This document shows, piece after piece, positions 3 through 23,912 of a stretch of DNA of 27,506 nt. The notes beneath the pieces are model-generated. The model did no database searches. It saw nothing but the letters and a program-made list of their open reading frames with translations, and was not told the DNA's origin. The stretch is from a virus. Taxonomy: Duplodnaviria; Caudoviricetes. How positions within the stretch are numbered: position 1 is the first letter of the stretch; each line of letters opens with the position of its first letter. Location: positions 1-27,506 of IMG/VR virus record IMGVR_UViG_3300030095_001123; one strand, given 5' to 3'. The position numbers and the translations under genes are program-made.

Positions 3-266
3 ATGGACATTATTGTTCGTAAGAAAACATTGCTTGAAAAAGAAAAAGAAATAAAGTTTATGTTAGACTACAGGTTTGGTCTTGGCACATACGATGAAAT
101 GTTAGGGATGCGTAGACAAATACGTAAGGAACGTGAAGAGACTGTATATAAAGCCATGGAAGCTAAACGACAAATACAGAATAACTTAGCCATAGCCACT
201 CTATCGTTCCTAATTCTTGGTACATTAGGTGGGGGCATTTATTTAGTAATACTAGGAGTTAGTTAA
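3..266 (+). CDS. hypothetical membrane protein, probably 5'-truncated by the window edge
   Basis: Charged helical region followed by a C-terminal hydrophobic helix (LAIATLSFLILGTLGGGIYLVILGVS). Stop overlaps the next ATG (TAATG). Confidence 0.75.
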   Translation: MDIIVRKKTLLEKEKEIKFMLDYRFGLGTYDEMLGMRRQIRKEREETVYKAMEAKRQIQNNLAIATLSFLILGTLGGGIYLVILGVS

Positions 267-529
267 TGAGTAATTTTATAGTTATGCCACTTGTGTTGGC
301 AGGATTGTTAAGTAACCCTGAGTTTGTAATATGTCAATTAGCAAAAAGAACAGAAGTAAGAGAAGAAAAAGTTTGCATTTACCGTGGCCCTAATGGTACA
401 ATAGGGTATCATTACCCAAGTTTTAGTTTTAAAGAATGCCCAAAGCAATTTATGTGCAGGTACACACCTAATGCAAAGAAGAAAGTATCAGTTCAAGATA
501 TACTTGACGGATTAAAAGAAGGCTTTTAA
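266..529 (+). CDS. small Cys-containing hypothetical phage protein with hydrophobic N-terminus
   Basis: AGGAG RBS upstream, TAATG coupling at both ends, four Cys and a signal-like N-terminus. Confidence 0.75.
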   Translation: MSNFIVMPLVLAGLLSNPEFVICQLAKRTEVREEKVCIYRGPNGTIGYHYPSFSFKECPKQFMCRYTPNAKKKVSVQDILDGLKEGF

Positions 530-948
530 TGAACCTAGACTACAATAAAGCAGTAGCAGATGGATTAAGTTTATTTATAAAAAGCCCTTCACACTATAAG
601 TACAATACTTTTGATATACATACCTATTTAATACTACCTATTATTAATAATAGAATAAGAATATTTTATCAAGAAGACCTACCAATAGGATTAATAACTT
701 GGTGTTGGTTTACAGAAAATAAAACACAAAAATTTTTACAGTATAAATATGATCCTCAACAAGAAGACTATGAAGATACAAACATAAAAGACAAACAACT
801 TTGGGGTTTAGACTTTATATCTAATACAGGAAAAGCAAAACAAATGATGTCCTCAGTTAGAAAAGAACATTTAAAATTATACGGTAAGTCCAAAGTACAT
901 TGGCGTAGGTTTTCTAATCCTACTAAGACACATAAGAAAGAGTTTTAA
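529..948 (+). CDS. HlyC/RTX toxin-activating lysine acyltransferase family protein
   Basis: Motifs collinear with HlyC: S19-P-S-H22 (HlyC SPLH), ILPII, PIGLITWCW (PVAYCSWA), EDY (EDW), LWGLDFISNTG (KWFIDWIAPFG), and late WRR. Length 139 aa. Confidence 0.8.
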   Translation: MNLDYNKAVADGLSLFIKSPSHYKYNTFDIHTYLILPIINNRIRIFYQEDLPIGLITWCWFTENKTQKFLQYKYDPQQEDYEDTNIKDKQLWGLDFISNTGKAKQMMSSVRKEHLKLYGKSKVHWRRFSNPTKTHKKEF

Positions 949-950
949 CT

Positions 951-3803
951 ATGATCTATAATCCATTTATGCCTAGTATTCGTTTTGTAGACCATGCTGT
1001 TTTTGGCGGCGGTGGTGGTGGCGCACCTGCCCCGGCACCTGTCCCTGTGCTTCCTCCTGCTCCTGTAAGTCAAAACTTAACCTCTACTTTTCCAGAGTTA
1101 ATAGGAGAATTTTTTTTCGATCTGCAAGCACTGAATAACAGAGAACAAGAAATCATTGCACAAAGAGAAGCAGCAGCTTTAGCAGCTAAACAAAAAACTG
1201 AAGCAGAGACTGCAGCCACTACTGCTAAAGAATATGCTTCAGGTATTTCTTCAGACGTGAATACTGCAGCTATCAATGCTCAAGCAGAATCAAACAGGCT
1301 TAATCTTGAGGTATCTTCTTTAAGATCTCAGATAGCAAATGGGCCAAAAGAAGGTGAAGAAGGTCATAACCCTGAGCTTCAAAATACTCTTAGTGCAAAA
1401 GAAAAAGAGTTAGAAGCAGCAGTACGTAAAGCTACAGATATTGGACAAATACAGGCAGGAGAACTTAGAGCTGGTCAACGTGATATACTTGTTAAGTCTG
1501 CTACTGATCCTACCTCACTTATTTCAAAACCTGTAGTAGATACTATTGATCCTAATGCTACAGGTACAAGTGTGTCTACAACTGCTGGTCAAGTTACTGG
1601 TACAACACCTCAAGCTGGTAAGCCACAGATCCCTCGCCCTGATTTGCCAATAATTATGGGTCGGTCACCAAGTGGCAGACCTGAAGATATTCGTGGTTTT
1701 TATTCAGATCTACAACCGTCACCTGCTCTACGTGATGATGCACAGGTAACAGGACAACAACAAATCGCATCAGGGTTTCTTCCCGCCTTTCCACCCCCAA
1801 CAAAACCAACACCATTGGGTGTAGGTCAAACTACAGCAGCCCCTAGCCCTGTTGATATAGCTGCATCTACTATGGATGCTGACCAACGTTCTGCTCAAGT
1901 TCAAAGTATTACACAAGGTCTTACCGGGGAGCAAGGCACTGTATCAACTCAGGTAGACGCTGCTACTGGGACATTATCTGAAGGTGCGATACCAAATGCT
2001 GCCACTATGGACCCTAATTATATTAAGGAAGTTACATCAGGTACTCGTAATGTTTCTAGTGATGAGATTGCAAAAGCTCAAGGTTTGTCTGAAGAGGCAG
2101 TTAAGACACAGATAGCTCAGGCTAATACTCCTGACAATATTATTGCTGCTCAAACTACGGTTCAACCTAATGAAATACCTCAAGCAGCTGAGATAGCTGA
2201 GTCAGATATGGCACAAGCTGTTGCTATTACATCCGATGGATTAGCAGAAGATGCAGTAGCTGTTGCTACTAAAATGAAATCTTTTAGTGTAGATGCTGGA
2301 ACTTTAGCAGAGTTTAAAGAAGGTAAGATTGAAGCAAGAGATACTGTACAAGGACAACTTGCTCTACTAATGAAGCAGTTTGATGATGGGACTCCTGCAT
2401 GGGCTGCAGGTGCTATGAGGGCTGCTAATGCTACTATGGCATCCAGAGGATTAGGTGCTTCATCTATGGCATCTGCTGCTATTATACAAGCATCAATGGA
2501 AGCTGCATTACCTATTGCCTCTGCAGATGCTAATGCATTTCGTGAGATGAAACTTAATAATCTTAATCGTCAGCAACAAATAGCTTTAACTAATGCTGCT
2601 GCTCAACAAGGTGTAGAGTTACAAAACTTTAGTGCAGAGCAAGCTGCTATGTTGCAAAATTCACAGAATGCTTTCTCTGTGCAAACACAAAACTTAAGCA
2701 ACATGCAATCTGCTGTACTAGCTAATGCTCAAATTAAAGCTGCTCTACAAGGACAGAATCTTTCTAATCAACAACAAGCTAATTTAGTTGAAGCTGCAAG
2801 ATATGCTGAAGTTAATAATCTTAATCTTAACAACGTTCAGCAAAGTTTGCTGCAAGATAGTGCAAACAATCTACAAGTAAGTCTTGCAAATCTTAGCTCT
2901 AAACAACAAGCTTACGTTGCTAATGCACAACTTGAAGCTGCCTTACAAGGAAAACAAATTGATAACCAACAACAAGTTGCTATTTTAAATGCAGCTAAGT
3001 TTTCTGAAGCAAACAACCTGACCTTTACTGCAAGACAACAAGCAGAAATAAATAACTCTGAGCTAATGAAAACAATAGGTCTTGCTGAATTAAGTAGTAA
3101 GCAAGCAGCTACACTACAAGGTGCTGCAGCTATTGCTTCTATGGATATGGTTAATCTTTCTAACCAACAACAAGCTGCTGTAGAAAATGCTAAAAACTTT
3201 TTACAAATGGATATGGCTAACTTAAGTAACGCTCAACAAACTACTATGTTTAATGCTCAGTCTAATATACAAGCACTATTTACAGATCAAGCTGCTGAAA
3301 ATGCTGCACGTCAGTTTAATGCTTCTAGTGAAAACCAAACAAAACAATTTATGTCTAACCTTCATGCTCAGGTAAATCAGTTCAATGCAGAGCAAAAGAA
3401 TGCTATGTCTCAGTTTAATGCTGGTGAAGAAAATGCATTAGATAAATTTAATACTAGTATGAAAGAACAACGTAATCAATTTAACGCACAGAATGCTCTT
3501 GCTGTAGCTCAATCTAATGCACAGTGGAGACAAAATGTTGCTACTCTTAATACTGCTGCACAGAATGAAGCAAACATGTTGGCGGCTGCAGTCTCTAATC
3601 AGTTTACCCAAGCTAATATGGATCAGCTATGGCAAAGAGAACGTGACCTTATGGACTATGCTTTTAAAGCTTCAGAGTCAGACAAAAGCAGACACTTAGA
3701 GTTACTTATAGCCGATAAGCAAGCGGCTGCAGATGCATTAAAAACAGAAAATGCAAATAAAAATTCAAGAAATCAACTCTTAGCATACGCATTGTTTATG
3801 TAA
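951..3803 (+). CDS. internal virion (DNA ejection/pilot-like) protein with hendecad coiled-coil repeats
   Basis: 950 aa, A/Q/N-rich. Gly6 and Pro-rich N-terminus, RGLGASSMA small-residue segment, NLSNQQQ repeats about every 22 aa and FNA about every 11 aa. Located in the virion module. Confidence 0.75.
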   Translation: MIYNPFMPSIRFVDHAVFGGGGGGAPAPAPVPVLPPAPVSQNLTSTFPELIGEFFFDLQALNNREQEIIAQREAAALAAKQKTEAETAATTAKEYASGISSDVNTAAINAQAESNRLNLEVSSLRSQIANGPKEGEEGHNPELQNTLSAKEKELEAAVRKATDIGQIQAGELRAGQRDILVKSATDPTSLISKPVVDTIDPNATGTSVSTTAGQVTGTTPQAGKPQIPRPDLPIIMGRSPSGRPEDIRGFYSDLQPSPALRDDAQVTGQQQIASGFLPAFPPPTKPTPLGVGQTTAAPSPVDIAASTMDADQRSAQVQSITQGLTGEQGTVSTQVDAATGTLSEGAIPNAATMDPNYIKEVTSGTRNVSSDEIAKAQGLSEEAVKTQIAQANTPDNIIAAQTTVQPNEIPQAAEIAESDMAQAVAITSDGLAEDAVAVATKMKSFSVDAGTLAEFKEGKIEARDTVQGQLALLMKQFDDGTPAWAAGAMRAANATMASRGLGASSMASAAIIQASMEAALPIASADANAFREMKLNNLNRQQQIALTNAAAQQGVELQNFSAEQAAMLQNSQNAFSVQTQNLSNMQSAVLANAQIKAALQGQNLSNQQQANLVEAARYAEVNNLNLNNVQQSLLQDSANNLQVSLANLSSKQQAYVANAQLEAALQGKQIDNQQQVAILNAAKFSEANNLTFTARQQAEINNSELMKTIGLAELSSKQAATLQGAAAIASMDMVNLSNQQQAAVENAKNFLQMDMANLSNAQQTTMFNAQSNIQALFTDQAAENAARQFNASSENQTKQFMSNLHAQVNQFNAEQKNAMSQFNAGEENALDKFNTSMKEQRNQFNAQNALAVAQSNAQWRQNVATLNTAAQNEANMLAAAVSNQFTQANMDQLWQRERDLMDYAFKASESDKSRHLELLIADKQAAADALKTENANKNSRNQLLAYALFM

Positions 3804-3818
3804 TAGTAGGATTAACAA

Positions 3819-4589
3819 ATGACATATACAAAAATAACAAAACAAATAAAACCTATGAGAGGTCAAGTATCTACACTAAGTAGCTTATCGGCATCAGAAG
3901 AGGGTGAACAACGTGGTGTAACTAGCCGTAAATTAGTTCGTAGACCTTCAATATCTACAGAAAACTATGAACCGAAAGAAGATTTCTTTACCAAATTTAT
4001 AAAAGCTCAGGATGAACGTTTCTCTAAAATGAAAGAGTATAAGTTAGCTAGTGCAACAGATGAAGATATGTTGTTTGGAAAACCACCATCATTAGATGAT
4101 CTTAGTAATGGTGAAGGTTTAGGAGATGAGGCTATGTACAAACTTGATTACATGGCTAATGATATGATGGACACATTTATGAAAAGACTTAACATAAGTA
4201 GGGAACAAGCTGCAGCTTTAGTTGGTAATGCACACCATGAGACAATGGGTTTTAAGTCTTTACAAGAAATAAAACCTAAGTCAGGAAAAGGTGGATATAA
4301 TTATTTTCAATTTACTGGTTCCAGAAGAGAAGAATTTTTTAATTTTGCAAAAAATAAAAGTTTAGACCCTGATGATCTTAATACCGGAATTGAATTTTCA
4401 ATTTTTGAATTAACAAAAGGTTCAGAAAAAAATAAATTAAAGTTATTAAAAAATGCTAAGACAGTAGAAGAAGCATCTGACATTGTAGCTAAAAAATATT
4501 TAAGACCTGCAGCATCAACTGCTAAGTATAAAGTAAGAGAAAATTTATCCAGAGGGTATTTAAATAACTATATGGAAGGTATTAATTAA
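3819..4589 (+). CDS. virion-associated peptidoglycan hydrolase (phage tail lysozyme, Phage_lysozyme2-like domain)
   Basis: C-terminal half has AAALVGNAHHET, GGYNYFQFTGSRR, EFSIFEL and LKNAKTVEEASDIVAKKYLRPA, matching the tail-lysozyme pattern. Confidence 0.8.
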   Translation: MTYTKITKQIKPMRGQVSTLSSLSASEEGEQRGVTSRKLVRRPSISTENYEPKEDFFTKFIKAQDERFSKMKEYKLASATDEDMLFGKPPSLDDLSNGEGLGDEAMYKLDYMANDMMDTFMKRLNISREQAAALVGNAHHETMGFKSLQEIKPKSGKGGYNYFQFTGSRREEFFNFAKNKSLDPDDLNTGIEFSIFELTKGSEKNKLKLLKNAKTVEEASDIVAKKYLRPAASTAKYKVRENLSRGYLNNYMEGIN

Positions 4590-4591
4590 AA

Positions 4592-5119
4592 ATGTTTGAT
4601 GCACCAATTCCGGGTCAATCCCTTACTAATGAACCTAAGAATTACGCTTGGGAAAATCCTTCAAAGTTTGTAGAGCCAGAAGAAGCATTGATCTGGCACA
4701 TGGAAAGACTAGAGGAACCACAAAGAATAAAATCTATCTTTCATTTTTTAGAAATGGGTGTAGATGTTGTTACTCTCGTTGAAGGCATTACTCGTAATGC
4801 TGTAGCAGGAGGCTATCATACTGTGGATGTAAGTTTAATTATCTCCCCAGTTATACATGAGTATATTGTAGGTATTGCTGAAGTTGCTGACATAGAGTTT
4901 AATGAGGGTTTAGATGAGGAACAAGTTGACGATGAAGAGTTAGCTTATGACATAAGAGAAAAAGAAGCACGTAAAATTCTAAGCCAACTAAAGAAAAACA
5001 AAGAGCCTGACTTAGATGTTCTTGAAGAATCTTTGCCTAAACAACCTACTGCGACACAAGAGGATATCCCTGAAGAAAAACCACAAGGTCTAATGGCAAG
5101 ACCACAAGGAGTTAATTAA
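4592..5119 (+). CDS. conserved marine podovirus protein, putative virion component
   Basis: MFDAPIPGQSLT..PKNYAWENP N-terminus, as recalled from HMO-2011-type phages. Acidic; lies between internal virion genes. Confidence 0.65.
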   Translation: MFDAPIPGQSLTNEPKNYAWENPSKFVEPEEALIWHMERLEEPQRIKSIFHFLEMGVDVVTLVEGITRNAVAGGYHTVDVSLIISPVIHEYIVGIAEVADIEFNEGLDEEQVDDEELAYDIREKEARKILSQLKKNKEPDLDVLEESLPKQPTATQEDIPEEKPQGLMARPQGVN

Positions 5120-5120
5120 T

Positions 5121-6164
5121 ATGGCATTCTATTATGGTGGAATTTTAGAAGGTATTATGGCCGCTGAAGCAAAAAAAGCTGCTGATGAAGACCGTAGAAT
5201 AAATCAAGAACGTTATGATGCAAGTCAAAAAAGAGAAGACGAACGTTGGGCTTTGACTCTAAAGGAGCATGAGAATAGAATTAAATCAGGTGCTGAAAAG
5301 AATTTTTTAACTTATTTAAAATCTTATAAACCTTCAAGTAGTAATAAAAGTAGTGTTGCAAGTGATGTTGAGCTTACAAATGCATTAGAAACAATACAAG
5401 GAATGTTACCTAAAAATAGTCCTGTAACTGCTAAACTTGTTAATGCTCCATTTAAAGATTTACAAGAAGCTATAGGGATTATAAAAGCAGCTAAAGCTAA
5501 TGCACAAGAGAGTGGACAAGCTTGGTCTCCAGAACTTTCAGAAAGTCTTTTTGAAGATGTGTATGTAACTACAGTTGAAAATAAATTAACATTTGACCCT
5601 AAAGTTCTAGCAGAACAAGCAGGTATAGATTATGAGGGTAATGCTAGTTTTGGTGTTCCTTGGAAAGAAATAATTAGACAGTATATACCTGATACTACAT
5701 CTACTGCTGTTCAAATAATACCTAGAACACCAGTGAAGCCCCTTGATCTTACTCAACAAAGACAACTTCAGAGTGCGTATAGAGAAAGTTTAGAGGGTCC
5801 ACTAGCTGACATGAAAGCAGACTTTAATACTAAAATAGCTAATGGAGAAAATGTTGATCAATCTTTAGTTGTAAAAGTAGATAAAGCCCTTGCTGATCTT
5901 AAAGGAGACAACCCATCTACAAGGCTTGCAGTGCAGTTAATTGGACCTCAAGTTGCTATAGATTTACTTACTATGAACCCTAATGCTCAACAATATCGTA
6001 CTTATATTAATAAAGGTTTAGTGTTCTCAGAAGATGAAGTAGGAGAAGAGTTACTTGCTCAGGCAATAAGAGTTGGATTGCTTGTAGAGGGTGATAAAAT
6101 TATGTTAGGCACACGTCTAGTGCCTATAACTGCTGCAACTATAGCAGCGGCACAGGAGAATTAA
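5121..6164 (+). CDS. putative internal virion protein
   Basis: 347 aa helical protein with a Gly-containing N-terminus followed by a charged coil. AGGAG RBS; located before the largest virion gene. Confidence 0.6.
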   Translation: MAFYYGGILEGIMAAEAKKAADEDRRINQERYDASQKREDERWALTLKEHENRIKSGAEKNFLTYLKSYKPSSSNKSSVASDVELTNALETIQGMLPKNSPVTAKLVNAPFKDLQEAIGIIKAAKANAQESGQAWSPELSESLFEDVYVTTVENKLTFDPKVLAEQAGIDYEGNASFGVPWKEIIRQYIPDTTSTAVQIIPRTPVKPLDLTQQRQLQSAYRESLEGPLADMKADFNTKIANGENVDQSLVVKVDKALADLKGDNPSTRLAVQLIGPQVAIDLLTMNPNAQQYRTYINKGLVFSEDEVGEELLAQAIRVGLLVEGDKIMLGTRLVPITAATIAAAQEN

Positions 6165-6165
6165 C

Positions 6166-9100
6166 TTGAGTAACAATTTATTTAATACTCTTGGTCAAGA
6201 AATACCTCAACCACCAATAAAAAGTAGACCAAGTTTATTTGATACTCTTGGTCCTGCAACTTCTCAAACTGAAGAGGAGGAGGATTTCCCAAGTATTTTT
6301 GATACACTGGGAGAAGGAAGAGAAGTAGAACAAGCAGAGCAAGAAGACGGCTTTGGTTATACTACTATTATGAATGAGTTAGGTAAATTTAAAGGTGACA
6401 TTACAGAAGAACAAATGATATCTAATCCTGTTATCATGAAGGGTCTTAGAGAGATTATGAAGTCTCGTTACAGTGAAGACACACGTAATAGTTACACTAT
6501 GGATGAAAAGTATGACAATACTGCAGATGATTTAACTGTACTAGATGAGTGGCAAAACTGGAATAGATCATTAAGTGGTGGTCAAACTGTTACAACAGCT
6601 AATGATCTTGCGTGGTTTGTGGGTGCTGATGACAAACAAAAAGAATTATTAGGTGCTAACTTTGAAATATTTGAACGTATGCCTAACATTTTTACAGGGG
6701 ATGTTGGGTGGGATGAAACACGTGATGGTGTTTACGATTATTTAAAAGCTGGTATTTGGGATCCAACTACACCATTAAGTTTATATGTGGGAAGAATCTT
6801 TACTGCATCTGGGGCTAAAGCTGGTGGCTTTGCAATGAAACAAGTTGCCAAAGATTATGCAAAAGAAGCTGCAAAACGTGGATTAAGTCAGCAACTAATT
6901 AAACAAGGACAAAGAAAAATAATTCGAGGTGGTTTTAAAAAAGCTGGTGCTTTTAAAGCTGCCTCTGTTCCTGCTATGATGATCACTGATGCTGCCATTG
7001 CTGTAGCTGCTGACCGTGGTTATCAAAAACTTCGTGTAGGTTCTGGTTTTCAAGATGATTATAGTCTACCTCAATCTGTTGGTGCTGCACTTAGTGTTAT
7101 GATTATGCCAGCTCTGTATGCTAGTTCTAGGGGTGTTGTAAGTTTTACTAAAAGTAAATTAGCTGAGAATACAGCTTTTGAAAAATACGCAAACATTTTT
7201 AAATTACATGGTGGCAAAGGACCAAAAGCTATTGAGAAAGCTGTAATAGACGAAGTTGATCTATCAAAAGTTAATGCAAATCTTCGTTCTGTTTTTAAAA
7301 GATTTAAAGAAAATATAGGTGAGTTTACTCCTTACATGAAAGCAAGGGATGAAGCTGCCTCTCTAGTAACTAAAAAACAAATAGCGGGTAGTCCTACTTT
7401 ATTAGAAGATTTTTTTGAAGTCAGTTTAATGTTAAACATGGAGGGCGGATTTGTAAAGTCTATGCAAGAAGCTGGGTTTGTATATGTTCCAAGAGAAAAA
7501 GATGATAACATTTCTAAATTTTTAGGCGATGCATTAAAGTATTTAGACGATGATTTAGTTAAAGAATATAAAGATTCTTTTTTATCTCAGTTTGGTAAAT
7601 TGCCAGAAGCAATAAATAAAATAAAAACAGCAGAAGATTTATCAGCTTGGTATGTAAACAGGGGTAGGTTTGCAGGTAAAACTCTTTGGGATCGTAAAGA
7701 AGCTGCACGTATTCTTTCTAAAGAACCTGCTGATTTAACTGTAGAAGATATGTTGGGGACAGCTCTTAATGTAAGAGATAAAGACAAACCAGTTGCAAGT
7801 GCTGCTGATAGAATTAAATACATGCAATCTGTATGGAAACGTCTTGTAACTACTCACCCATCCACAGTAGGACTTAATGTAAAAGGTTGGGCATATACAG
7901 CAGGTATGAATACAGCATCTGATATTGTTCTTTCTGGTTTGCTTTTAGGTACTGGAAAATTTCAAAAAGCTAAAGGAACTTTATTAGGTGCTGCAAGACG
8001 TGGCGTAAATATAATGACACCTCAAGCAACCATAGAGTCTGCAGAAAATTTCTTTAAGTTTAGACCTGATGTAGCAGAAAAATTATTTGCTGAAAGGGCT
8101 GGGGGTGTAGACTCAGCTAAGATTCTTGAACGACTAAACTTAGACCCTAATTCTAAAATAAACCAGTTAAGTGAAAAAAGTTTAGGCGCTTTACAAGCAG
8201 TGGTAGGCGTTAAGATGCAAGACGAAGTAACAAAAATGTTGTCTTTTTATAGTGCATTTGATCAAAATATTATGTCCCATTATGGCATGACCCACAACCA
8301 ATTTATGAAACAAGAGGGTGCATTTTCAAAACTATTTTCTAAAGAGTTTTTAGAAAATGTACAAGAACCTGCAATTGAACGTGCTAATAGAGAAACTTAT
8401 TCTACTTCTTTTGCCCATAAAAAGGGGAGTAGTCCTTTTCTTTATATGGCAAAACAAATTGAGGCACTTTCTAACTCTGCAGGGGGTGGCATACTAATTC
8501 CTTTTGGAAGATTTTTTAACGCAGCAACAGCTACACTAGGAGACTACACAGGATTTAATGCTTTAAGACATCTTACTTTTAGAACGAGTCAGATTAAAAA
8601 TCCTTTTGATGAGGAGGGATTAAACCATCTTGCTAAAGGTATAGTTGGTTGGGGTTTTATATATGGATCACTTCCAGACGGAACTTCTAATAAAGACCGT
8701 GCTATGGAAAAGGTGCGGAAGGGTATACCTTGGAATAAAAATGAACGTGCTGACGGTTCTTTAACAGATGAAACCTATGAGTTTCCCGGTGGATATGTAG
8801 AAATACTAAGTCAAGCAGCAGCTCATGCTGAGATTGATGGTACAATACCTAAAGCTTTAAGAGAAGAGATGGCAAAAATTTTAATAACCCAATCGTTTAG
8901 AGATAGTGGTGCAGCTTATGATACATTTAAAGATTTGTTTATTACATATTCAGAATTAGACACAGATAAATCAATTAAAAAAAGTTTAGAAGTGTTAGCT
9001 TCTGGCTTCTCACGCATTGCTTCAGGTGCAACTAGACCTCTTGAGCCTTTAAATGTAGCAACAATGTTTGCAGAAGAAGATTTTTCTCAACCAGATAGAA

Positions 9101-9708
9101 GGCAAGATAATAAAGTATTTAATGATTCTATTCGTTATATAGATAAACTTTTTGAAATAAATACAGACTTACCTAAGCGTGAACAAGCCACCAGAGGTAG
9201 TGGAAATGAGTTTTTTGACGTAGGTAGAACTGTAGGTGGTGTTAGATCATCAGCACCATTAACACCTTCTGAGAGGTTACTAGGTTCTGTAGGCGCACAA
9301 GCTTGGCAAGCTGTTAGATGGGGCGGAACGGCTGAATATAAAAATAGACTTGATGGTTTAGTGAGTGATATTCTTAATTATGAAGCCTCTCTTTATATAG
9401 AGGATGGTATTTTAGATAAGAGTCTTCTTGAAAGAGAAGAGGCTGTTAAACGTGTTAATAAACGTTCTAAGAATAGAGCTAAAGAAGTTTTAACTTCTAG
9501 TTTGGATTATGATGATCAAATTTTAATTTTACAATCTAAAATAGGACTAAAAAATAAAGCCTATATAAATGAGGCTTTAAAAATAGCTGGTTATGAGAAA
9601 GGTCTAGACGAAATAAAAGACGAAGAGGGGGGTAAAGAGAAACTAGAATATATCCTTTATTTAATAGAGAACAGAGATTCTATCTTGTTTAAAAATTTAA
9701 GAGACTAA
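6166..9708 (+). CDS. large internal virion protein (positional analogue of T7 gp16)
   Basis: 1180 aa helical protein with TTG start after AGGAG. Central Ala/Gly-rich hydrophobic segments and an N-terminal (L/I)F(N/D)TLG repeat x3. Last gene of the late arm. Confidence 0.65.
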   Translation: MSNNLFNTLGQEIPQPPIKSRPSLFDTLGPATSQTEEEEDFPSIFDTLGEGREVEQAEQEDGFGYTTIMNELGKFKGDITEEQMISNPVIMKGLREIMKSRYSEDTRNSYTMDEKYDNTADDLTVLDEWQNWNRSLSGGQTVTTANDLAWFVGADDKQKELLGANFEIFERMPNIFTGDVGWDETRDGVYDYLKAGIWDPTTPLSLYVGRIFTASGAKAGGFAMKQVAKDYAKEAAKRGLSQQLIKQGQRKIIRGGFKKAGAFKAASVPAMMITDAAIAVAADRGYQKLRVGSGFQDDYSLPQSVGAALSVMIMPALYASSRGVVSFTKSKLAENTAFEKYANIFKLHGGKGPKAIEKAVIDEVDLSKVNANLRSVFKRFKENIGEFTPYMKARDEAASLVTKKQIAGSPTLLEDFFEVSLMLNMEGGFVKSMQEAGFVYVPREKDDNISKFLGDALKYLDDDLVKEYKDSFLSQFGKLPEAINKIKTAEDLSAWYVNRGRFAGKTLWDRKEAARILSKEPADLTVEDMLGTALNVRDKDKPVASAADRIKYMQSVWKRLVTTHPSTVGLNVKGWAYTAGMNTASDIVLSGLLLGTGKFQKAKGTLLGAARRGVNIMTPQATIESAENFFKFRPDVAEKLFAERAGGVDSAKILERLNLDPNSKINQLSEKSLGALQAVVGVKMQDEVTKMLSFYSAFDQNIMSHYGMTHNQFMKQEGAFSKLFSKEFLENVQEPAIERANRETYSTSFAHKKGSSPFLYMAKQIEALSNSAGGGILIPFGRFFNAATATLGDYTGFNALRHLTFRTSQIKNPFDEEGLNHLAKGIVGWGFIYGSLPDGTSNKDRAMEKVRKGIPWNKNERADGSLTDETYEFPGGYVEILSQAAAHAEIDGTIPKALREEMAKILITQSFRDSGAAYDTFKDLFITYSELDTDKSIKKSLEVLASGFSRIASGATRPLEPLNVATMFAEEDFSQPDRRQDNKVFNDSIRYIDKLFEINTDLPKREQATRGSGNEFFDVGRTVGGVRSSAPLTPSERLLGSVGAQAWQAVRWGGTAEYKNRLDGLVSDILNYEASLYIEDGILDKSLLEREEAVKRVNKRSKNRAKEVLTSSLDYDDQILILQSKIGLKNKAYINEALKIAGYEKGLDEIKDEEGGKEKLEYILYLIENRDSILFKNLRD

Positions 9709-21315: not shown

Positions 21316-22296
21316 TCACATATACTTTCTTGATACGTAATCACTGGTATAACTACGTGATTCAATCTTAGCCTCGTCAATCAGTAGATCAGGTGTGAAC
21401 CCCATCTCAATAAGCATTTTAGTTACTAGATCAGGATGCTCTGAAACTAATATATGCATATCCTCAGTGTCATAATTATCCAGAGGCTCATTGTAGTTAC
21501 CATAAGTTTTACCACTTAAGCTACCCCATCTTGACCAGAAGTCATCATCATCATAGTGCATCTCGTACATGGATGGATCACGTGATATCACTAGCTTGGA
21601 CCAGTCAGCTTGTGTCAAGGCATACATCAACAGGTCAGCATACTCAAGGTCTTGTGTCTCATTGACACCGTGCTGACCATAGTAACCTACACTGATGTTG
21701 GTACACTCAGGAACTTTATCAGCATACTCATTGCTGTCAGTGAATGAGCCACCTGTGTCAGCCACAAGCTGTGGTAGGTCAAGTGCTGTAGCAAATGATT
21801 TAGCAAAGTCATCTGATGCTGTACGTCTGCCCATCTGATGTGTGATCACTGAGTTTTCACCGTATCTGTCAAAGGATATAACTGCGTCAATGTGTGTCAA
21901 CCAATAAGGATGACTCTTGACAAGTGCGCCACTACCAACACAACCAGACTCTTCTGCTGCATGGACTACATACACACCCTCAATACCCTCTTCAATCATA
22001 CCAAGCATGAGCCATACACCAGTAGTACAGTCAGCACCAAGGCATGAGGATGTAGCAGCGTCAGCTACGGATACTATGTTGTTAGTGACAACAAGCTTCT
22101 GTAAGCCCTCTGTCTTGTGTACTGTGTCATGGTGTGACGCAAAGCATATCTTAGGGTTATCACCTATACGCAGTATGTAGTTGCCGTTGATATCAGGCAA
22201 ACCAAAGTGTGGTTCTAGGAACCGTTCACAGAACTCTTGCTGAGTGCTGGAACCTTGCGGTCTCTTGTACCGCAGCATTTCTATTAAGCTATACAT
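21316..22296 (-). CDS. M28/M20-like zinc metallopeptidase (amidohydrolase)
   Basis: Metal-ligand motifs SHHDTVH, LGADCTTG, AEESGCVGS, ISFDR, FTDS and NISVGYYGQH..ETQD. Confidence 0.85.
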   Translation of the reverse strand: MYSLIEMLRYKRPQGSSTQQEFCERFLEPHFGLPDINGNYILRIGDNPKICFASHHDTVHKTEGLQKLVVTNNIVSVADAATSSCLGADCTTGVWLMLGMIEEGIEGVYVVHAAEESGCVGSGALVKSHPYWLTHIDAVISFDRYGENSVITHQMGRRTASDDFAKSFATALDLPQLVADTGGSFTDSNEYADKVPECTNISVGYYGQHGVNETQDLEYADLLMYALTQADWSKLVISRDPSMYEMHYDDDDFWSRWGSLSGKTYGNYNEPLDNYDTEDMHILVSEHPDLVTKMLIEMGFTPDLLIDEAKIESRSYTSDYVSRKYM

Positions 22297-23912
22297 TATT
22301 CTTCCTCTTCTACTTTTATCCAGACACCTTCAGGATTCTTCTCCCAAGTATCATTACTATCAAGAATCTCATCCTCTGCTACATCATGACCATCCTCAGT
22401 GAAACACCTGACACCATTGTTGTATACTTCACCATCCCAATCTGATTGGAAGTAATCATCTTCCATGTCTTTAGGTGATAGCCAAACCTCTTCAGACGTA
22501 CACCATGTTGCATCATCATCAAGCCAATGCTTACCATCCTTACACAGAATATAGTTGGCATCACGTGCATCCTCGGATACATTATCTAATGATGGCCCCC
22601 AACTACACTGATGCCAAACTTCAACAAGCTCAGAGTTGTGTACATGCTCACATATGTAATCACAGTAAGTATGCTCATTGTGGAAGCAATGCTCACAATA
22701 GTGATACCCATTATGCTCTGAGCAATAGTAATCATCCTCATTGAGTGACTCACCACACTCACAACACTCAGTGTATGAGCCATTAAGTATGCCATGATAT
22801 GTACTAGCATCCACCTCACCACATTCATCTATGATAAGATACTCACCATCACTACACTCAATCATACGCTGTGGTGTCACATCTAAGTATGGACCTATGA
22901 AACCACCCTGATGAGGCTTGGCTAGTAGCCTAGCACCTAACCAGCGTGATCCACGTTCATACCCTACTGCATTGATACTGTCAAGCCAATCCTGTAATTG
23001 ATTGATTGAGTTCTCACAAACACCATAGATAGGACCAGCTTGTGGTCTCTCTTTGTATGATGTACACACCATAACACGACCAGCAATCTCACCACTAGGT
23101 GTCTCTAACCAAGCAATCTTGAAGTCACCACTGCCATAGACAGAGCAAGGGTGCTGTGGCAGTTGATCAAACGTATACCGCATACATGAATGAGCAATAG
23201 CCTTTCTGGTAGTGGTAGTCTTAGGATTGTCCATGTCTGCCTGATTGTGTGAATAGGCATGAGTGAAGTCATCAGGTGATGTACCTGTCTTGAGTGTGAA
23301 GGTACGTAAGCCGAACCTCTCACGGAAAGCATCAGTAAGTATCTCAATGTCTGAGTCAGGTAACTCAGGGAAGATGTACTTGAAGGAACGACCAGCCTTG
23401 ATAGCTACCTGTCTGTCATTGTCTGCATCTTTACGTGTCTGGTACATGCTGATCTTACCATGTGCAATCTTGGAACGGATAGGCTGCAATGCACGTAGAC
23501 GTAACAACCAGTTCTGATACTTATGTTCCTTAGAACAAATGTCAGTCTCGTCAAGCTTGGTCCTGAGCCAATTAACAAACACATGATCTTTAAATATTGC
23601 ACAATCATCCTCAAAGGGACCAAAGCGTTGCAGTACCTTGTCAGTAGGGTGTAGGTCAGCAACCCTACGCACAATGAACCCATTGTAACGTGGGTTGACA
23701 CCAAAGGTGACACGTACCATGCTGTCAGCTATTGTGATGAAGCCACCGACAAGATCACCATTACTGTGTATCTCGTCTTCCCTTCTGATAGGGTAGGGTT
23801 TCCATTTCTCAATGTACATCTCAACAAGATACTCACTGTTGTCAGTGATACCACGCCCAACACATACATGCTGGGCTAGGTCTGGATCTACCATTACTAT
23901 CTCATATGGCAT
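22296..23912 (-). CDS. conserved phage protein with SCM core and C-terminal Cys/His-rich zinc-binding and acidic repeats
   Basis: 538 aa. HSCM..HPCSVYGSGD..IAGRVMV core, PYLD, then CCECGE..CEHC..CDYICEH. AGGAG RBS and TAATG coupling to the peptidase. Confidence 0.75.
   Translation of the reverse strand: MPYEIVMVDPDLAQHVCVGRGITDNSEYLVEMYIEKWKPYPIRREDEIHSNGDLVGGFITIADSMVRVTFGVNPRYNGFIVRRVADLHPTDKVLQRFGPFEDDCAIFKDHVFVNWLRTKLDETDICSKEHKYQNWLLRLRALQPIRSKIAHGKISMYQTRKDADNDRQVAIKAGRSFKYIFPELPDSDIEILTDAFRERFGLRTFTLKTGTSPDDFTHAYSHNQADMDNPKTTTTRKAIAHSCMRYTFDQLPQHPCSVYGSGDFKIAWLETPSGEIAGRVMVCTSYKERPQAGPIYGVCENSINQLQDWLDSINAVGYERGSRWLGARLLAKPHQGGFIGPYLDVTPQRMIECSDGEYLIIDECGEVDASTYHGILNGSYTECCECGESLNEDDYYCSEHNGYHYCEHCFHNEHTYCDYICEHVHNSELVEVWHQCSWGPSLDNVSEDARDANYILCKDGKHWLDDDATWCTSEEVWLSPKDMEDDYFQSDWDGEVYNNGVRCFTEDGHDVAEDEILDSNDTWEKNPEGVWIKVEEEE

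Follow-up and report, generated by a model that had tools for sequence, protein, structure and literature searches.

A phage HlyC-family acyltransferase gene and the putative N-terminal fatty acylation of the presumed virion protein encoded beside it

An acyltransferase gene and its partner in a viral genome fragment

The DNA analysed in this study (the window) is a stretch of 27,506 nt from a virus (Duplodnaviria; Caudoviricetes), IMG/VR record IMGVR_UViG_3300030095_001123, and is a 27.5-kb fragment of a phage type running to about 54 kb. Its subject here is a pair of adjacent open reading frames (ORFs) on the plus strand, 529-948 and 951-3803. The first encodes a 139-aa acyltransferase of the HlyC, or toxin-activating acyltransferase (TAAT), family; the second, separated from it by 2 nt, encodes a 950-aa protein (the partner) that is a candidate ejection protein. 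Both ORFs and the gap between them are present as described in a first-pass annotation made from the sequence alone, which proposed that the enzyme fatty-acylates its neighbour. The family, fold and catalytic residues of the enzyme, its adjacency to the partner gene and the small-residue N-termini found across unrelated partner families are established by the results below. The HlyC gene has been annotated in phages previously; the proposal made here, of a target at the partner N-terminus, is sharper than that of the first-pass annotation. The features discussed are listed in Table 1.

The pair touches on two questions: by what means the ejected proteins of short-tailed phages become seated in the host envelope, and which role falls to the small acyltransferase-fold gene that precedes ejection genes. 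In the window that slot is filled by a family known for protein fatty acylation, and a precise site is suggested by the genome comparisons.

Identity of the 139-aa protein

The 139-aa protein was matched to HlyC in Pfam (PF02794; E 1.7e-12; 47.8 bits, cut-off 25), and to that family alone at an E value of 0.01. The GNAT families of the IVP-A proteins, PF11090 and PF11039, which do match the T7 and P22 proteins in Pfam, were not found in it. An AlphaFold model (pLDDT 85) was compared with the PDB using Foldseek. The top three matches were chains of ApxC (4whn; TM 0.69-0.73), the best having a TM of 0.73 and an E value of 6.6e-6, with GNATs next. A profile built from 23 close homologues retrieved only ApxC from the PDB sequences, weakly (E 0.058), and in the same profile Ser19, His22 and Asp95 align with ApxC. 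Thus, the hidden Markov model search and the overlay on ApxC that the first-pass annotation had suggested both returned the HlyC family, and all of the residues that it named as the HlyC motif set occupy their positions. The 139-aa protein is, by sequence and structure tests, a member of the HlyC/TAAT family. Its C-terminal third is basic (net charge +7), which would fit acyl-ACP (acyl carrier protein) as donor, the donor used by the TAAT family (PMC8510554).

No RTX nonapeptide repeat was found in six frames of the 27.5-kb window, no type I secretion family was found in a Pfam scan of 30 of its 98 listed ORFs, and RTX repeats were found in none of 184 viral HlyC loci. The absence of RTX toxin and type I secretion genes noted earlier therefore holds for the frames and ORFs scanned in this fragment. 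It is apparent that the protein belongs neither to an RTX system nor to the IVP-A GNATs, though it lies in the IVP-A slot.

An H22A substitution had been proposed as the control for activity. Tyrosine replaces His22 in 7 of the 23 close homologues, so H22A is a weak control and Asp95 is a better one.

The 950-aa partner

Homologues of the C-terminal half of the partner were found in 27 phage records, with CRP-1/2/9 and HMO-2011 at the top, and positions 3048-3755 are modelled as one long helix (core model pTM 0.27). Searches of Pfam, PHROG and NCBIfam with the partner returned no match, nor did the PDB, searched with the single sequence and with a profile, return a meaningful one. Two Atlas searches were equally uninformative, a lead to P22_gp7 scoring 0.82, in the chance range, and homology to a known ejection protein such as PF25688 (P22 gp7) was not found. 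As is typical of podophage ejection proteins, the partner is large and helical, and its gene lies beyond those for the tail, in a block that includes a muralytic gene. Because this gene opens the final late block, adjoining a tail-lysozyme gene, and because the core is modelled as a long helix, we infer that the partner is an ejection protein. The label 'ejection-like' given to it earlier thus agrees with gene order and model, but not with any family match. No proteomics for the HMO-2011-type group was found in the open literature. In the core of the protein, a repeat block (window 2400-3300) varies in copy number among strains, with protein lengths from 600 to 1020 aa.

The N-terminus of the partner is conserved in a particular manner. 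Among 51 homologues, N4 and P5 of the leader and G20 are invariant, and G19 and G21 are kept in at least 90%. Synonymous variation was observed at all four codons of YNPF in the leader. The protein has no cysteine, and its first lysine is residue 80; in 40 of 52 partners, no lysine lies within 10 residues of the glycines.

The first-pass annotation had pointed to Gly-Lys dipeptides as acylation sites. Three are present (1.74 expected), but their lysines are kept in only 1, 3 and 4 of 46 HlyC-adjacent homologues, and these sites were rejected as targets. Nor was a lysine column specific to the HlyC-adjacent homologues found in an alignment whose repeats align roughly; the best (0.89 versus 0.57) is Asn in the 950-aa protein.

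Co-variation of HlyC and the partner leader

Close homologues of the HlyC gene were found at 64 viral loci (designated here by L numbers), 63 of them with downstream DNA. In all 63 a partner gene starts between -4 and +3 nt from HlyC; its product opens with a Y-N-P leader, in most cases an aromatic residue, and then at least two glycines, beyond which the sequences diverge. A reverse set of 67 loci was found by the partner core, of which 62 were 5′-complete. HlyC is adjacent in 13 of these and in L241, which was counted as adjacent, its cut end being visible (L214 was a regular-expression false positive); the leader is present in 14/14. A different N-terminus was observed in 46 of the 48 loci without HlyC. 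Locus L206 is closely similar to the window up to the stop codon of the upstream 87-aa gene and then switches to another N-terminus; the HlyC gene and leader are therefore a swappable cassette. Quick trees were used to follow its distribution, and on a tree of 76 cores the HlyC/leader state changes eight times, at least five of them on strong branches. The HlyC gene was found in 1 of 37 records behind the HlyC-less loci, so that most relatives lack it. Judged from these comparisons, the cassette is an optional module that exchanges with another N-terminal domain. The co-variation supports the neighbour as the target, as the annotation had it, though not the Gly-Lys details of that proposal.

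The HlyC-less versions of the 950-aa protein (L190-L253, L186, L188 and L189) carry another N-terminal domain, which ends in [FYMLW]-x-x-G-G. This ending was found in 22 of 30 such versions, in comparison with 4.0 in shuffles, and may mark the same site of processing, here operating without acylation.

N-termini of unrelated viral partners

The survey was extended to 276 viral loci with an HlyC ORF, 271 of which had a downstream start; these gave 185 unique pairs. The 164 partners longer than 200 aa formed 10 BLASTP families, and the enzymes formed 20 clusters. Partner starts were Met-Gly in 89 cases, Met-Ser-small in 2, a leader followed by small residues in 87 and other in 7. By eye, five of the last group are also leaders, which leaves HTVC103P and one cut locus as the only exceptions. 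A Met-Gly-Gly start was found in 84/185 partners versus 0/516 neighbouring ORFs, among which Met-Gly (31) and a loose leader pattern (42) provide the background. The pattern was followed in 18 of the 20 HlyC clusters.

The partners differ in kind. In HTVC112P/111P/026P the partner is the central tail fibre J, which begins Met-Gly-Gly followed by an amphipathic-looking helix. Other partners are encoded between portal and capsid genes (L072, L099 and L069) or among tail or lysis genes (L086, L126 and CRP-235 gp29), and in HTVC115P HlyC is followed by a late gene whose product starts Met-Gly. The clade adjacent to that of the window enzyme serves the non-homologous gp29 family, whose members begin M-G-G-G-G with no leader. 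Leaderless starts (M-N-G-D, M-G-G-D and M-S-G-D) mirror the residues found after the aromatic residue in leader-bearing partners (F-N-G-D, F-G-G-D and F-S-G-D). Reverse searches gave the same picture: HlyC was adjacent in 54 of 56 judgeable loci for tail fibre J (8 of 64 being cut), in 11/11 for gp29 (2 cut) and in 3/3 for gp45 (1 cut), and all of these adjacent partners begin Met-Gly. The gene-neighbourhood survey proposed in the first-pass annotation thus reveals tight linkage of phage HlyC homologues to virion-module genes. The term 'ejectosome' used there is too narrow, as siphophage tail tips and post-portal proteins are also partners, and for the 950-aa protein such a role is putative.

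Two variants of the pattern were also observed. In the L068, L069, L074, L099 and L115 families the small residues are preceded by a leader whose last two residues are Cys-Phe or Cys-Tyr. Hint domains likewise begin with Cys-Phe, and T7 gp14 begins with Met-Cys; cysteine may conceivably be the acceptor in the families listed. At L086:1702-4463, HlyC lies among Met-Cys genes, with M-C-M-G-G-G-G upstream and an IVP-B-like gene downstream, an arrangement in which several targets per enzyme are possible.

Proposed mechanism and alternatives

The following scheme is proposed. The 18-aa leader would be cut next to its last aromatic residue by a host or phage peptidase, and the aromatic residue may or may not remain; such cleavage is predicted from the leaderless sister partners and from P22 gp7. 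The alpha-amine thus exposed at the glycine run, rather than a lysine, would accept a fatty acyl group from host acyl-ACP. The partner would be packaged and then ejected, the lipid helping it to seat in the host envelope. HlyC would in this way take over the task that has been suggested for the GNAT gene occupying this slot in T7 and P22. That the neighbour is fatty-acylated at some site appears quite likely, and the comparisons tilt modestly towards N-terminal fatty acylation of this presumed virion protein by the 139-aa enzyme. If so, phages encode the lipidation of their own virion proteins and TAAT enzymes have a new acceptor; the exchangeable cassette might then adjust the host range of phages abundant in the ocean, and the enzyme would be a small one for N-terminal protein lipidation. 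Cultured phages with an HlyC-partner pair are CRP-235 (gp30/gp29), HTVC112P (gp46/gp47) and HTVC115P (gp46/gp45).

A number of observations weigh against an N-terminal target; those that favour a particular alternative are given with it below. The support comes from genomes and models. The 185 pairs include near-copies, and 60 of them are one siphophage cluster, so the counts overstate independence. Loci L191 and L196 carry the leader with no adjacent HlyC; in both, a non-glycine directly follows the first aromatic residue of the junction. About one-quarter of leaders have K, Q, D, N or S directly after the aromatic residue. Four of the five cultured relatives checked lack the HlyC gene, which is therefore optional. 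Finally, the mature N-terminus of P22 gp7 was read by N-terminal sequencing and was therefore unblocked (PMC8402733).

The alternatives are taken in decreasing order of probability. It is unlikely that HlyC assists assembly by binding the N-terminal peptide without catalytic activity, or that it adds only a short acyl group, for example acetyl, as a GNAT does. T7 gp13 is labelled a probable scaffold protein in Pfam, and is needed for morphogenesis and not retained in the virion (PMC4819975); TAATs share the GNAT fold; and His22 is replaceable, being present in 119 of 185 viral HlyC proteins and absent in 66, the whole siphophage cluster included. Against this, the catalytic acid and Arg127 are conserved in every cluster, Asp/Glu95 in 185/185 of the unique pairs (a count partly built into the search pattern used to collect the loci, which also tempers its weight for the N-terminal proposal) and Arg127 in 183/185. 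Moreover, His24Ala ApxC retains residual activity (PMC8510554), and the top fold match is a TAAT, not a CoA-using GNAT.

An improbable alternative, and the one put forward in the first-pass annotation, is acylation of a partner lysine, as performed by HlyC, CyaC and CdiC, with the glycine tip as a docking site or unrelated. The characterised TAATs acylate lysine side chains, and the target lysine of CdiC lies in no fixed motif (PMC8510554). None of the characterised TAATs covered here is reported to act on an alpha-amine. K-G-D or K-S-D directly follows the leader in 8 of 87 partners, and some partners have Lys-rich N-terminal helices. In the 950-aa family, however, the Gly-Lys sites are unconserved, the rough repeat alignment contains no HlyC-specific lysine column, and the first lysine of the 950-aa protein lies 61 residues beyond the glycines.

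Rather improbable, too, is a target elsewhere, in a different virion protein or some component of the host envelope, with HlyC linked to its neighbour through hitch-hiking on one recombination cassette. The cassette edges are sharp, and the HlyC gene and leader adjoin, so that one crossover could move both together; only three well-supported independent pairs were available, for which the sign test was not significant (p 0.25). A second Met-Gly protein is encoded nearby in CRP-235, and in HTVC103P and HTVC104P HlyC is an early-region gene, followed by a non-Gly gene. On the other hand, the N-terminal pattern recurs among some 10 mutually unrelated partner families and with two clades of phage HlyC, and the Met-Gly virion-module gene that adjoins HlyC in HTVC115P has a counterpart still present in HTVC103P (HlyC at L455:4459-4908). 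The separation of HlyC from the Met-Gly late gene in HTVC103P/HTVC104P constitutes a natural test of action at a distance.

It is very improbable that the leader stays, its aromatic-N-P-F start acting as a membrane anchor with any acylation on Met1: two tail fibre J genes without HlyC (L637 and L638) do begin Met-Gly-Phe/Trp-Asn-Pro-Phe, the leader motif of the window, and no leader peptidase was identified, but leaders of other families without N-P-F end in the same aromatic and small-residue junction, and leaderless sisters begin at the glycines.

Genomic context

Downstream of the pair, the gene order is the same as in HMO-2011, CRP-1 and CRP-345. HMO-2011-type phages have a characteristic DNA polymerase architecture; the DNA polymerase matches in the window (Pfam and PHROG) are to family A only. 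The window is about half of an HMO-2011-like marine podophage, sharing late genes and their order with the three phages named. Fifteen of 24 listed sequencing runs contain half or more of it, the labelled ones being marine or aquatic metagenomes; five RNA runs contain only small shares. Contigs from two runs not marked as the source run across both genes (X4, 497-1621; X8, 493-2717), and a loose contig ends at 530 in run X8.

The 87-aa gene upstream of HlyC is also present at L195, L202-L204, L206-L210 and L214. The tail-lysozyme gene supports an entry module at this place. No family was matched by the 175-, 347- or 1180-aa late proteins in Pfam, PHROG or NCBIfam. On the minus strand, in the early region beside the integrase gene, window 21316-23912 encodes an M28-like peptidase (phrog_4191; 21316-22296) and a 538-aa uncharacterised protein. 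The peptidase was considered as a possible leader peptidase.

Table 1. Features of the window discussed in the text, with positions counted from the first nucleotide of the window
Feature	Position	Strand	Basis
87-aa gene directly upstream of the HlyC gene; left edge of the swapped cassette	266..529	+	Common to HlyC-less relatives
139-aa HlyC/TAAT-family acyltransferase	529..948	+	Pfam, profile alignment, AlphaFold model, Foldseek
Codons of Ser19 (583-585), His22 (592-594), Asp95 (811-813) and Arg127 (907-909)	within 529-948	+	
950-aa partner; variable low-complexity N-terminal half, conserved helical C-terminal half; candidate ejection protein	951..3803	+	Homologues, identity profile, model
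18-aa partner leader with Y-N-P-F motif, ending A-V-F; predicted to be cut off	951..1004	+	Conservation; leaderless sister partners; P22 gp7
Gly6 run; predicted new N-terminus and acyl acceptor	1005..1022	+	Conservation
256-aa protein with phage tail lysozyme domain	3819..4589	+	PF18013, E 5e-21
Three late genes (175, 347 and 1180 aa) closing the operon; presumed internal virion proteins	4592..9708	+	Order as in HMO-2011, CRP-1 and CRP-345

Comparison with known systems

The 139-aa enzyme shares with HlyC, CyaC and ApxC (PF02794; 4whn) its Pfam family, its fold (TM 0.73) and a Ser/His/Asp centre aligned to that of ApxC. It differs from them in lying in a phage late operon, with no RTX or type I secretion genes nearby, in serving a partner with no conserved target lysine, and in length (139 aa versus about 170). 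Another parallel is CdiC of class IV contact-dependent inhibition, a TAAT that lipidates a non-RTX neighbour, CdiA, which must grip the outer membrane of the target cell; loci without cdiC show a changed target residue in CdiA (PMC8510554). The lysine that CdiC acylates is internal, in a two-partner secretion protein (PMC8510554), whereas the predicted target here is the N-terminus of a phage protein.

The position of the gene recalls the IVP-A slot. T7 IVP-A and its counterparts, which have matches among acetyltransferases, are encoded ahead of IVP-B (PMC4819975), and T7 gp13 (PF11090) and P22 gp14 (PF11039) are small acyltransferase-fold genes 2-4 nt before gp14 and gp7, respectively. The position of HlyC in the window fits this slot, its neighbour being a putative internal virion protein gene by gene order. 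In P22, host OpdA cleaves a 20-aa leader from gp7, so that the mature protein begins Lys-Gly-Gly-Lys-Gly, and gp7 made without the leader works at 60% burst (PMC8402733); a cleaved leader and a Gly-rich mature start are likewise predicted for the 950-aa partner. The two systems differ in that HlyC is of another family, the partner is not a gp7 homologue and the P22 gp7 end is unblocked. The available portions of PMC4819975 and PMC8402733 show no activity for IVP-A, a P22 channel preprint (10.64898/2026.09.03.749273) has no mention of acylation, lipidation, gp14 or cleavage, and phage GNATs are treated as metabolic genes in PMC11288001. HlyC is annotated in seven cultured phages (CRP-235 gp30, HTVC103P/104P/115P and HTVC026P/111P/112P), and the figure legend of a preprint names phage HlyC by abbreviation, the accessible part giving no target or role (10.1101/2019.12.14.876532). 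Searches of the open literature showed no report of phage virion protein acylation or of a phage HlyC target; subscription papers and supplements were outside this scope and could hold proteomics.

Bacterial HlyC genes provide a further arrangement. On Rhodobacteraceae-type chromosomes, an HlyC gene lies directly before that of a cadherin/Ig-like and Hint protein of about 300 aa (L334, L338, L344, L346, L357, L363, L366, L370, L381, L388, L396, L397, L404 and others). PF13403 was found in 4/4 scanned Hint partners, and a Hint start motif in 16 of 72 bacterial HlyC loci, 9 starting Met-Gly and 7 Met-Val. The combination of a self-cleaving Hint domain and an acyltransferase recalls Hedgehog logic. 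At L367 and L395, a bacterial HlyC gene lies between two-partner secretion genes, in a CdiC-like order, and adjoins an acyl-carrier-like ORF.

Non-enveloped animal viruses have N-myristoylated penetration proteins, such as picornavirus VP4, in which a fatty acid on an N-terminal glycine, exposed by removal of Met or a leader, serves membrane entry. As a tentative generalization, to which we give somewhat less than an even chance, marine podo- and siphophages encode a counterpart of these proteins: an HlyC enzyme, shifted from lysine to the alpha-amine, would act once Met or the leader has been removed, and would lipidate the glycine tip of the first membrane-meeting virion protein, be it an ejection protein, a central tail fibre or a post-portal protein. 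Such a system would explain the IVP-A slot of T7 and P22, and might extend to the HlyC and Hint pairs of the Rhodobacteraceae. The resemblance to VP4 is one of analogy and not of homology: there a host enzyme uses acyl-CoA, whereas here the enzyme is a virus-encoded TAAT and the predicted donor is acyl-ACP.

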